IMG/VR virus record: IMGVR_UViG_2585427754_000003
Reading direction: 5' to 3' (one strand)
Source: a virus
Lineage: Duplodnaviria > Heunggongvirae > Uroviricota > Caudoviricetes
DNA: 18,155 nucleotides
The notes below the pieces were generated by a model. The model did not search any database. It was not told where the DNA came from and saw only the letters and a program-made list of their open reading frames with translations. The position numbers and the translations under genes were made by a program. Numbering within the stretch: position 1 is the stretch's first letter; the number at the start of each line of letters is the position of its first letter. Of this stretch, positions 4,332 through 6,689 are shown piece after piece.

Positions 4332-4351
<20 letters not shown>

Positions 4352-6689
4352 TCTCCCGCATATTGCCAGTATGGCCTTTAATGAGCCGCTGATGCTTGAA
4401 CCCGCCTATGCGCGGGTTTTCTTTTGTGCGCTTGCAGGCCAGCTGGGGATCAGCCGCCTGACGGATGCGGTGTCCGGTGACAGCCTGACTGCCGGAGAGG
4501 CACCCGCGACGCTGGCGTTATCCGGTAATGATGACGGGCCACGACAGGCCCGCAGTTATCAGGTCATGAACGGCATCGCCGTGCTGCCGGTGTCCGGCAC
4601 GCTGGTCAGCCGGACGCGGGCGCTGCAGCCGTACTCGGGGATGACCGGTTACAACGGCATTATCGCCCGTCTGCAACAGGCTGCCAGCGACCCGATGGTG
4701 GACGGCATTCTGCTCGATATGGACACGCCAGGCGGAATGGTGGCGGGGGCATTTGACTGCGCTGACATCATCGCCCGTGTGCGAGACATAAAACCGGTAT
4801 GGGCGCTGGCCAACGACATGAACTGCAGTGCAGGTCAGCTGCTTGCCAGTGCCGCCTCCCGGCGTCTGGTCACGCAGACCGCCCGGACAGGCTCCATCGG
4901 CGTCATGATGGCTCACAGTAATTACGGTGCTGCCCTGGAGAAACAGGGGGTGGAAATCACGCTGATTTACAGCGGCAGCCATAAGGTGGATGGCAATCCC
5001 TACAGCCATCTTCCGGATGACGTCCGGGAGACACTGCAGTCCCGGATGGACGCAACCCGCCAGATGTTTGCGCAGAAGGTGTCGGCATATACCGGCCTGT
5101 CTGTGCAGGCTGTGCTGGATACCGAGGCTGCAGTGTACAGCGGTCAGGAGGCCATTGATGTCGGACTGGCTGATGAACTTGTTAACAGCACCGATGCGAT
5201 CACCGTCATGCGTGATGCACTGGATGCGCGTAAATCCCGTCTCTCAGGAGGGCGAATGACCAAAGAGACTCAATCAACAACTGTTTCAGCCACTGCTTCG
5301 CAGACTGACGTTACTGACGTGGTGCCAGCGACGGAGGGCGAAAACGCCAGCGCGGCGCAGCCGGACGTGAACGCGCAGATCACCGCTGCGGTTGCGGCAG
5401 AAAACAGCCGCATTATGGGGATCCTCAACTGTGAGGAGGCTCACGGACGCGAAGAACAGGCCCGCGTGCTGGCAGAACCCCCCGGTATGACCGTGGAAAC
5501 GGCCCGCCGCATTCTGGCAGCTGCACCACAGAGTGCACAGGCGCGCAGTGACACTGCGCTGGATCGTCTGATGCAGGGGGCACCGGCACCGCTGGCTGCA
5601 GGTAACCCGGCATCCTTCATCACTAAAGGCCGCCTGTGCGGCTTTTTTTTACGGGATTTTTTTATGTCGATGTACACAACCGCCCAGCTGCTGGCGGCAA
5701 ATGAGAAGAAATTTAAGTTTGATCCGCTGTTTCTGCGTCTCTTTTTCCGTGAGAGCTATCCCTTCACCACGGAGAAAGTCTATCTCTCACAAATTCCGGG
5801 ACTGGTAAACATGGCGCTGTACGTTTCGCCGATTGTTTCCGGTGAGGTTATCCGCTCCCGTGGCGGCTCCACCTCTGAATTTACACCGGGATATGTCAAG
5901 CCGAAGCATGAGGTGAATCCGCAGATGACCCTGCGTCGCCTGCCGGATGAAGATCCGCAGAATCTGGCGGACCCGGCTTACCGCCGCCGTCGCATCATCA
6001 TGCAGAACATGCGAGACGAAGAGCTGGCCATTGCTCAGGTCGAAGAGATGCAGGCAGTTTCTGCTGTGCTTAAGGGCAAATACACCATGACCGGTGAAGC
6101 CTTCGATCCGGTTGAGGTGGATATGGGCCGCAGTGCGGCGAACAACATCACACAGTCCGGTGGTACGGAGTGGAGCAAGCGTGACAAGTCCACGTATGAC
6201 CCGACCGACGATATCGAAGCCTATGCGCTGAACGCCAGCGGAGTGGTGAATATCATCGTGTTTGATCCGAAAGGCTGGGCGCTGTTCCGTTCCTTCAAAG
6301 CCGTCAAGGAGAAGCTGGATACCCGTCGCGGCTCTAATTCCGAGCTGGAGACAGCGGTAAAAGACCTGGGCGAAGCGGTGTCCTATAAGGGGATGTATGG
6401 CGATACGGCGATCGTCGTGTATTCCGGACAGTACGTGGAAAACGACGTCAAAAAGAACTTCCTTCCGGACAACACGATGGTGCTGGGGAACACTCAGGCA
6501 CGCGGTCTGCGCACCTATGGCTGCATTCAGGATGCGGACGCACAGCGCGAAGGTATTAACGCCTCTGCCCGCTACCCGAAAAACTGGGTGACTACCGGCG
6601 ATCCGGCGCGTGAGTTCACCATGATTCAGTCAGCACCGCTGATGCTGCTGGCTGACCCTGATGCGTTCGTGTCCGTACAACTGGCGTAA
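4332..6689 (+). CDS. C: Prohead protease/scaffold C-Nu3 fused in frame to major capsid protein E (D gene deleted); ~785 codons from the C start
   Basis: C starts at GTG 4332 ([16 protein letters not shown]...) behind SD ggagg at 4321-4325. The frame runs without a stop through the normal C/Nu3 C-terminal region (...AAGNPAS), then a 16-codon linker FITKGRLCGFFLRDFF read from former intergenic sequence, then the E ATG at 5664 and on to the E stop at 6689. The in-frame Nu3 start ATG is at 5046. The track ORF 4197..6689 is the same frame extended upstream into B. Confidence 0.75.
5625..5650 (+). promoter_or_regulatory. Terminator-like GC hairpin plus T-run immediately upstream of the E start, now inside the fusion reading frame
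   Basis: aaaggccgc ctgt gcggc followed by tttttttt: stem gccgc/gcggc (5629-5633 and 5638-5642), loop ctgt, then a T8 run (5643-5650). Confidence 0.45.
5664..6689 (+). CDS. E: Major capsid protein E (341 aa); also forms the C-terminal part of the C-Nu3-E fusion frame
   Basis: MSMYTTAQLLAANEKKFKFDPLFLRLFFRESYPF...DAFVSVQLA, 341 codons from ATG 5664, matching lambda gpE in length and almost all of its sequence. Confidence 0.9.
   Translation: MSMYTTAQLLAANEKKFKFDPLFLRLFFRESYPFTTEKVYLSQIPGLVNMALYVSPIVSGEVIRSRGGSTSEFTPGYVKPKHEVNPQMTLRRLPDEDPQNLADPAYRRRRIIMQNMRDEELAIAQVEEMQAVSAVLKGKYTMTGEAFDPVEVDMGRSAANNITQSGGTEWSKRDKSTYDPTDDIEAYALNASGVVNIIVFDPKGWALFRSFKAVKEKLDTRRGSNSELETAVKDLGEAVSYKGMYGDTAIVVYSGQYVENDVKKNFLPDNTMVLGNTQARGLRTYGCIQDADAQREGINASARYPKNWVTTGDPAREFTMIQSAPLMLLADPDAFVSVQLA

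Follow-up and report, generated by a model that had tools for sequence, protein, structure and literature searches.

A head protease–scaffold–capsid reading frame in a lambda-type Escherichia coli prophage, probably a by-product of prophage decay

In a lambda-type prophage of E. coli 6-537-08_S3_C1, the head protease and scaffold genes (C/Nu3) and the major capsid gene (E) lie in one unbroken reading frame, which is probably a private and recent lesion of a decaying prophage and not an evolved head-assembly design. The DNA analysed here (the window, 18,155 nt) is one entire contig, JORP01000097.1, of a 2014 draft assembly (GCA_000713265.1); a literature search for the strain name gave no match, and GenBank labels the fusion protein, KEM68416.1, merely as ‘clp protease family protein’. 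The initial annotation of this locus had offered two alternatives, a dead-end product of decay or a functional assembly variant. We favour the first and consider the second unlikely, because Nu1 is interrupted by ISEc12, D is absent, the C/Nu3 tail has been lost, the fusion is a singleton and its frame arises at a chance level.

The frame runs without a stop for 785 codons from GTG 4332, set as the C start by the S49 peptidase annotation in the related prophage L002, to the E stop at 6689, as seen in the sequence, the open reading frame list and the translation; the enclosing open reading frame (4197..6689, plus strand) encodes 830 aa. Its parts are as follows.

4332..5615, plus strand: C, the S49 head protease gene with nested Nu3; residues 1–428 of 439, from the translation and full-length C alignments
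5046..5615, plus strand: Nu3 scaffold frame, from an internal in-frame ATG at 5046
5614..5615, plus strand: deletion junction; 386 nt missing relative to L002 8021–8406, with 1 nt of microhomology
5616..5663, plus strand: linker FITKGRLCGFFLRDFF, the former D–E spacer, previously untranslated and still holding the ribosome-binding region of E
5625..5646, plus strand: terminator-like hairpin, with a GC core at 5629–5642 and then a T run; RNA fold −15.8 kcal/mol, z = −3.2
5643..5650, plus strand: T8 homopolymer, the longest homopolymer in the contig
5664..6689, plus strand: E, the complete major capsid gene, 341 codons with its own ATG at 5664
C side through to E, plus strand: join-spanning stretch of the predicted fusion, ...GNPASFITKGRLCGFFLRDFFMSMYTT

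Much of this anatomy had been described in the initial annotation and is borne out here. The Nu3 ATG is kept, at an offset of 714 from the C start that is the same as in HK630, and a linker of exactly 16 codons separates ...GNPAS from MSMYTT.... In L001, L002 and L004 the linker sequence is found downstream of the D stop, ahead of E, and the hairpin now lies inside the reading frame; a simple consensus terminator scan did not flag this hairpin, and direct folding was used instead. In the fusion protein, Pfam Peptidase_S49 covers residues 150–297 and Phage_cap_E residues 449–783 (profile positions 1–328 of 329). E has 98.8% DNA identity to E of L002, its private changes are five synonymous and none non-synonymous, and its ribosome-binding region and ATG (5650–5666) are intact. 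Three products are accordingly predicted, as had been proposed: C–E (785 aa), Nu3–E (547 aa) and free E (341 aa).

The deletion was defined by BLAST and by alignment against HK630 and L002–L005. Phage and E. coli relatives all match the window as two blocks that lie ~385 nt further apart, and the deletion is real relative to every relative examined. It removes the last 11 codons and the stop of C/Nu3, the entire decoration gene D and 7 nt past D, and no called gene of the contig carries a gpD Pfam domain. The loss of the C/Nu3 tail (DAVNDLLNTPV) had gone unmentioned in the initial annotation. Across 13 homologues, down to 75% identity, the DLLNTPV part of this tail is invariant or nearly so, while the residues directly before it are variable. 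The same 13 homologues have an invariant threonine at position 383 (C numbering); a proline there (T383P) is found in the window protein only, among 116 homologues retrieved.

That the deletion is itself a mis-join of a short-read draft assembly is extremely improbable. The contig edges are repeats (an IS at one side, J at the other), and many E. coli carry several lambdoid prophages, with a median of three places per genome for the whole window; yet the two sides of the junction share 1 nt only, so that there is no repeat to collapse, a single prophage type is colinear with the two flanks over 17.5 kb, and a comparable deletion in another prophage, P0002, is confirmed in independent assemblies.

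The remainder of the contig holds one further lesion and an otherwise complete set of genes.

1..597, plus strand: 3′ end of ISEc12 (IS21 family), with the 3′ part of istB to 513 and the right end to ~597
598..650, plus strand: Nu1 remnant, the last ~53 nt only, overlapping the A start at 625
625–2550, plus strand: A, intact, length as in L002; Pfam GpA_ATPase/GpA_nuclease
2547–2753, plus strand: W, intact, length as in L002; Pfam gpW
2750–4351, plus strand: B (portal), intact, length as in L002; Pfam Phage_portal_2
6731..18155, plus strand: FI, FII, Z, U, V, G/T, H, M, L, K and I, intact, and the 5′ 3.1 kb of J, from gene calls and Pfam

The 5′ end of the window matches ISEc12 istB and the IS end at 98.7–99.2% in many E. 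coli genomes, and the gene called at 1–513 carries Pfam IstB_IS21. In alignments to nohD/A of L002 and to an ISEc12 end, the IS gives way to phage sequence at ~595–598, colinearity with L002 nohD (2511–3056) beginning only at window position ~595. The small-terminase gene Nu1 is split by ISEc12 just upstream of the head genes, and for this reason the prophage cannot package DNA. The C-terminus of Nu1 is its gpA-binding part (PMC3224144, table 2). Searched for in order to find the nearest relatives and the order of events, the IS–Nu1 junction had no full-length match in complete E. coli genomes. Within the contig only the right end of ISEc12 is seen; the remaining part of Nu1, or a helper prophage supplying Nu1 and D in trans, would lie outside its view. 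Every other head or tail gene of the contig is full length, gene lengths from FI onwards are identical to those of L002, and J is cut off where the contig ends. Most of the private substitutions are synonymous (38 versus 13 non-synonymous), so the decay is very recent and expression of the module is still possible.

The wild-type arrangement from which the window departs, B–C/Nu3–D–E, is that of phage lambda, HK630, 434 and thousands of E. coli prophages. The window has 97–99% DNA identity to it over 17.5 kb and shares its gene order, nested C/Nu3 frames, E gene and D–E spacer: B overlaps the S49 protease gene C, which holds the in-frame internal Nu3 start, and E (Phage_cap_E) has its own start. 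Unlike the wild-type module, however, the window lacks the D gene between C and E and the last 11 C/Nu3 residues with the stop codon that separated C from E, has eight Ts (T8) in place of seven (T7), joins C/Nu3 and E in one frame and carries ISEc12 in Nu1.

The fused arrangement is private to one genome or lineage. Searches for the junction gave no match in 5,426 complete E. coli genomes, in 50,697 phage records and 72,556 plasmids, in 185,579 species genomes (GTDB) or, beyond the window itself, in IMG/VR and JGI metagenomes. KEM68416.1 forms a one-member protein cluster. No diverged full-length protein combining S49 and Phage_cap_E was present in the best 150 HMMER hits among 1.84 billion representatives, and the homologues below 60% identity in those 150 hits were all C-sized or E-sized. 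The arrangement is therefore not conserved among relatives.

As the initial annotation had warned, the fusion frame hangs on the length of the T run, which is T8 as it had stated. Alignment shows T7 in L001–L003 and T8 in L004 and L005. Exact matches to the T8 form were found in 16 of 2,998 E. coli records (0.5%); 2,981 of the 2,998 differ from the window’s 76-nt T8 form, falling in the 95–99% identity band, and T7 is put at 99.5% of related E. coli loci. Since the relatives carry T7, the in-frame state needs both the deletion and an extra T. With T7, the C and Nu3 frames would end in an out-of-frame tail of 63 nonsense residues, crossing the E start and stopping 36 codons into E, and the C product would be 491 aa long.

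The main rival to our reading accepts the deletion and takes T8 for a homopolymer miscall of a true T7 in the 2014 draft, such that there would be no fusion and E would be made from its own ATG only. We regard this as unlikely, although several observations are in its favour. The T8 form is rare, all three directly read T7-type relatives (L001–L003) have T7, and the run is the longest homopolymer of the contig (one of only four of at least 7 nt in the window). To the right of the run, the window has the haplotype of T7-type L002 for 300 nt and departs from that of the T8 carriers at three positions (5706, 5855 and 5885). KEM68416.1 is recorded from NCBI, nr and MetaClust only; neither a Logan re-assembly nor any other independent assembly of it is among these sources. 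Against a miscall, T8 is a real inherited allele in the D-containing prophages L004 and L005, which were found in different hosts and have their Nu1 and FI alleles in common; the hypothetical T7 product was likewise not present on exact look-up in a collection of 15 billion proteins; and slippage during the repair that made the deletion is equally plausible.

Two further ideas about the T run were considered and rejected. Inheritance of T8 from known T8-carrying prophages disagrees with the local haplotype, which is of the L002 type, although a very short recombination tract is possible. Programmed frameshifting was suggested by the heptamer T TTT TTA (5645–5651), which in the fusion frame is a classic −1 slippery site, but as a designed feature it was rejected on two grounds: the 80 nt downstream fold no better than shuffled sequences (z = +0.74), and the −1 frame from the slippery site is short, reaching a stop after 19 codons.

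An in-frame outcome is no rarity for a deletion in this place. An enumeration of all deletions with one end within the final 100 codons of C and the other in the D–E spacer gave a stop-free C–E frame in 23% (T7 ancestor) to 33% (T8 ancestor). The observed outcome is not above chance, being expected in about one in three to four such deletions.

Nor is the window the only case. The initial annotation had described the arrangement as unusual for a lambda-type head module, which is overstated, as four or more further C–E fusions, each made in frame by an independent deletion, occur in other E. coli prophages (P0002, 746 aa; P0004/P0005, 573 aa; P0008, 485 aa; P0009, 473 aa). P0002 arose by a 492-nt deletion with 11 nt of microhomology and was present in three samples, two of them with further tail-gene deletions. 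These chimeras resemble the window in joining the same gene pair by an internal deletion that removes D, and are singletons or small lineages in prophages that are otherwise lambda-like. They differ in that their junctions lie inside E, with the loss of the E start and of 12 to ~245 N-terminal residues, and often reach deeper into Nu3, whereas the window keeps all of E, its start and the spacer, so that free E is still possible. Chimeric B–C, C–D, C–H and C–L frames are also numerous.

We propose that the fusion arose as follows. An illegitimate 386-nt deletion, with 1 nt of microhomology, would have taken away D together with the 3′ end of C/Nu3 and 7 nt of the D–E spacer. The T run that lies 28 nt downstream is also one base longer than T7, and the two changes jointly let the C and Nu3 frames enter E via 16 spacer codons; slippage, perhaps while the deletion was being repaired, may have added this T, or it may derive from a rare allele. 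If the late operon is transcribed, translation starting at the C GTG, the Nu3 ATG and the E site would give C–E, Nu3–E and free E, respectively. In lambda, a head that lacks gpD cannot contain a full genome. As Nu1 is split, D absent and the C/Nu3 tail lost, we infer that the fusion is neutral or mildly harmful and unselected, and that C–E and Nu3–E, if made, would probably not work. Some points count against decay: the other genes are intact, the changes are mostly synonymous, the rare additional T (0.5%) sits on a T7-type haplotype, and the retained geometry (nearly all of Nu3, all of E and the E start) is the most benign possible for a C–E deletion. The coincidence of two private changes, 28 nt apart, that jointly restore a frame could also be explained by selection for the fusion.

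Such selection would mean that T8 was favoured after the deletion, either since a tethered Nu3–E (and C–E) polyprotein is assembly-competent or, in a variant, since it is retained as a dominant-negative subunit; taken as a whole, this is very unlikely. The first form may be compared with the capsid proteins of HK97 and T5, in which a scaffold is N-terminal to an HK97-fold capsid domain in one frame and a protease is encoded in the operon (PMC10275583). Given T8, scaffold and capsid domains do share one frame in the window (5046 or 4332 to 6689). In HK97, however, the 103-residue delta domain is conserved within the gene, the protease is separate and cleavage at the boundary is established, whereas the window’s extension has 444 residues including the protease, or 206 for Nu3–E, is found in one contig only and contains no known cleavage site. 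A capsid protein of the HK97/T5 type would also be made only as a fused precursor (1:1 scaffold to capsid), while E in the window keeps an independent start, from which free E is predicted as well. In Microbacterium cluster EE phages, head protease and major capsid protein form one polypeptide (PMC9671004). That fusion is conserved across whole clusters of virion-making phages, unlike the one-off in this defective prophage, and the comparison is one of architecture.

It is highly improbable that the locus is a working variant in which Nu3, tethered to the E N-terminus like an HK97/T5 delta domain, is cleaved by the C protease after assembly, alongside free E. Several features are compatible with it: as in HK97, the scaffold precedes the capsid N-arm; Nu3 and E interacted in a two-hybrid assay (PMC3224144); almost the whole of Nu3 is kept, as are E and its start; and the frame required two changes. 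But the fusion is a singleton, with no conserved architecture in the best 150 hits, the conserved C-terminal tail of Nu3/C has been lost and T383P gained, and the in-frame state occurs at chance frequency. With D absent and Nu1 disrupted, there is no phage able to benefit from such a variant. The linker is a hydrophobic read-through of the spacer. The other natural C–E fusions are unable to work, because much of E or Nu3 is missing from them, and this shows that such frames arise without function.

Genes of cryptic prophages are known to exclude related phages. The fusion might, in this way, be retained to poison the heads of superinfecting lambdoid phages, its expression being induced in trans by incoming Q. 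A complete E domain able to co-assemble, with a bulky 444-residue N-terminal extension, makes this plausible, but we consider it exceedingly improbable: the allele is neither conserved nor spread, free E is encoded too, and the locus is separated by the IS from any late promoter upstream. Decay by illegitimate deletion, with parallels such as P0002, stays our preferred explanation.

A covalent gpC–gpE product has been proposed for lambda itself. The initial annotation had cited the X1/X2 proteins as established knowledge, but this is contested: later attempts at detection failed and they are possibly artefacts (PMC3224144). As in the window, one polypeptide would contain C- and E-derived sequence, but the proposed lambda join is post-translational and present in a few copies per head, whereas the join in the window is genetic.

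As it stands, the finding is of little import, adding one more deletion-made chimeric frame to those of degrading E. coli prophages. It also urges caution, as accidents that create long in-frame fusions are common in prophage late operons and the present fusion depends on a single homopolymer base. If T8 had been selected, a lambda head with a separate scaffold would have moved to an HK97-like attached scaffold in two mutational steps. The locus is in any case a ready-made natural construct, in which a complete capsid protein has nearly the whole lambda scaffold attached to it, and its experimental appeal lies in asking whether a free scaffold can be converted to an HK97-style attached scaffold.

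A stop-free frame ran from the start of C, the S49 head protease gene (GTG 4332), to the stop of the major capsid gene E at 6689, as the sequence, the ORF list and the translation agreed. This bears out the open frame of the initial annotation, and the linker, the Nu3 ATG at 5046 and the T8 run at 5643–5650 were all found as it described. GTG 4332 is the counterpart of the annotated C start in relatives; mechanical calling starts the ORF further 5′, at GTG 4197, and the 4197–4332 stretch overlaps the end of the portal gene B. The fusion product (KEM68416.1, annotated as ‘clp protease family protein’) has 785 residues, with Pfam domains Peptidase_S49 at 150–297 and a complete Phage_cap_E at 449–783. 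The two parts are linked by ...GNPAS-FITKGRLCGFFLRDFF-MSMYTT..., of which the 16-codon linker is the former spacer between the decoration gene D and E.

Features of the fused reading frame
5046: internal ATG of Nu3, the scaffold nested in the C frame
5625–5646: stable hairpin in the linker (RNA fold, −15.8 kcal/mol, z = −3.2)
5643–5650: run of eight T residues (T8)
5664: ATG of E

In the fusion frame, 5645–5651 of the T run reads T TTT TTA, a classic −1 slippery heptamer at which part of the ribosomes could leave the frame; the −1 frame ends at a stop after 19 codons, no structure was found downstream of the heptamer (z = +0.74), and it is probably only a curiosity.

From 595 to 18155, the window and lambda-type phages and prophages were colinear and 97–99% identical, with a sole gap at D. 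BLAST and alignment against the closest relative fetched, the E. coli 28A18CPO003A prophage (L002), showed a loss of 386 nt, with microhomology of 1 nt: C/Nu3 lack their final 11 codons and stop, D is missing entirely, and so are 7 nt past the D stop. That this deletion is an assembly artefact is very improbable, nothing observed here being in its favour. As 386 is not divisible by three, and the distance from C start to E start in T7-type relatives is 1717 nt, the deletion by itself puts E out of frame; the frame is closed only by the T8 of the window, in place of the T7 of the D-containing relatives L001–L003. With T7 in its place, C would gain a 63-residue out-of-frame tail and stop 36 codons into E, at 491 aa.

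The main rival explanation is that T8 is a homopolymer miscall and there is no fusion. All other homopolymers in the contig are shorter than T8, and the haplotype beside it is that of T7-type L002, differing from T8 carriers at 5706, 5855 and 5885, so that the extra T is either a separate slippage event or else a miscall. Against the latter, the exact T8 form with intact D occurred in 16 of 2,998 matching E. coli records and is a naturally occurring form. We consider a miscall unlikely; slippage, perhaps within the same repair event, would have added the T 28 nt from the junction.

The prophage is damaged at several points. D is gone from the locus, and without gpD a full genome is not packageable in lambda heads (PMC3185693). 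Among the 11 missing C/Nu3 residues is the motif DLLNTPV, which shows little or no variation across 13 homologues down to 75% identity; the residues immediately preceding it vary. More distant S49 head proteases (among C/Nu3 homologues P0014–P0262) have other short tails, many like (Y/H)-x-K-A-T-G-x-K. These sequences suggest a partner-specific docking tail that may co-vary with capsid or portal. A private Thr-to-Pro change at 5478 (T383P, codon 383 of C) falls within ETPGM, an otherwise invariant motif in the scaffold part of Nu3/C, at a position that does not vary among the 13 homologues; P383 was unique to the fusion among 116 retrieved proteins, consistent with relaxed selection on C/Nu3. 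All other genes from A to I are full length and private substitutions are mostly synonymous (38, versus 13 non-synonymous, none of them in E), which indicates that the damage is recent.

Nu1 is affected by an insertion element at the contig start.

Element at the left end of the window
1–~597: right end of ISEc12 (IS21-family), the contig starting inside the element

Phage homology starts only 53 nt before the Nu1 end, abutting the ISEc12 right end (~597), so Nu1 is interrupted, truncated or replaced by ISEc12 directly upstream of A. The C-terminal region of Nu1, which binds gpA (PMC3224144, table 2), appears to be lost here. None of the complete E. coli genomes searched contained the ISEc12–Nu1 junction. 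In unrelated genomes, the flank that adjoins the right end of ISEc12 (ATATGAACTAAACCGG; 3095–3115 in the ISEc12-containing record L006) resembles that in the window (GGATGAACTGATACCGG; 590–615), so that BLAST matches extend ~20 nt beyond the element in many records; this may reflect ISEc12 target-site preference, or chance. Gene J (15032–18155) is cut by the contig end opposite ISEc12. The two ends together suggest that assembly of the draft stopped at repeats, so the genome probably has further copies of ISEc12 and J-like sequence, possibly with another lambdoid prophage.

Judging from the sequence, transcription of the late operon would yield C–E (785 aa), Nu3–E (547 aa) and free E (341 aa); free E is expected because its ribosome-binding region is untouched, the right end of the deletion lying 49 nt upstream of the E ATG. 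In the fused subunits, E would be preceded by 206 or 444 extra N-terminal residues that lack the conserved scaffold tail and are joined to E by a linker of hydrophobic read-through sequence, for which no protease site is known. Such subunits would be of no benefit to any phage, in a prophage without working Nu1 and D. Given the lost tail, the read-through linker and the defects in Nu1 and D, we think it probable that the fusion is an unselected by-product of prophage decay. A dominant-negative exclusion function, for which nothing observed here speaks, is highly unlikely.

The in-frame state of the fusion is unremarkable: when all deletions starting within the final 100 codons of C and ending in the D–E spacer were enumerated, 23% (T7 ancestor) to 33% (T8 ancestor) gave a stop-free C–E frame. 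The junction itself was private to the window, which is the entire 18,155-nt contig JORP01000097.1 of E. coli 6-537-08_S3_C1 (GCA_000713265.1). Neither 5,426 complete E. coli genomes nor 50,697 phage records nor 72,556 plasmids contained a match to a junction-spanning 50-mer; a junction 28-mer was likewise without exact hits in GTDB species genomes, IMG/VR or JGI metagenomes, and KEM68416.1 sits in a one-member protein cluster. The protein database held other independent in-frame C–E deletion fusions, all from E. coli prophages.

Other in-frame C–E deletion fusions
P0002: 746 aa; 492-nt deletion, 11-nt microhomology; three samples, two of them with further tail-gene deletions
P0004/P0005: 573 aa
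P0008: 485 aa
P0009: 473 aa

In two P0002 samples, a fusion joins gene Z to tail-fibre sequence (L009, 11055–12283; L010, 6805–7895), so that most tail genes are deleted there, which shows progressive decay in this lineage. Many B–C, C–D, C–H and C–L chimeras were also present. Dozens of near-identical late-gene chimeric ORFs were seen (P0016–P0066: portal–C (966 aa), C–D, C–tape measure, C–tail L, A–C, E–FI and E–Z), most of them singletons that come from draft or Logan assemblies. Prophage decay, or assembly or frameshift error, frequently gives rise to fused late-gene ORFs. Among the best 150 HMMER matches in 1.84 billion representative proteins, no diverged full-length protease plus E-type capsid protein was found; homologues below 60% identity were all C-sized (about 415–508 aa) or E-sized (about 340–350 aa). 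The protease–capsid architecture thus appears not to be an evolved one in this C/E family.

HK97 and T5 carry their scaffold as an N-terminal part of the capsid protein (PMC10275583), and small actinobacteriophages have conserved ‘major capsid and protease fusion proteins’ (PMC9671004). The window fusion resembles HK97 and T5 in topology and is also similar to the actinobacteriophage proteins, but differs in being unconserved, in retaining its own E start and in lying in a defective element. A working HK97-like assembly variant is very improbable, nothing observed here favouring it. The initial interpretation is borne out in part: of the two readings first offered, a dead-end product of decay or a functional variant, the evidence supports the former. 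The appeal made there to covalent gpC–gpE products (X1/X2) draws on an observation that is disputed (PMC3224144). The window fusion is properly classed with the deletion chimeras of cryptic lambdoid prophages, as a new, unusually ‘clean’ example; it is of low surprise, and of modest worth as a natural construct to test scaffold tethering.
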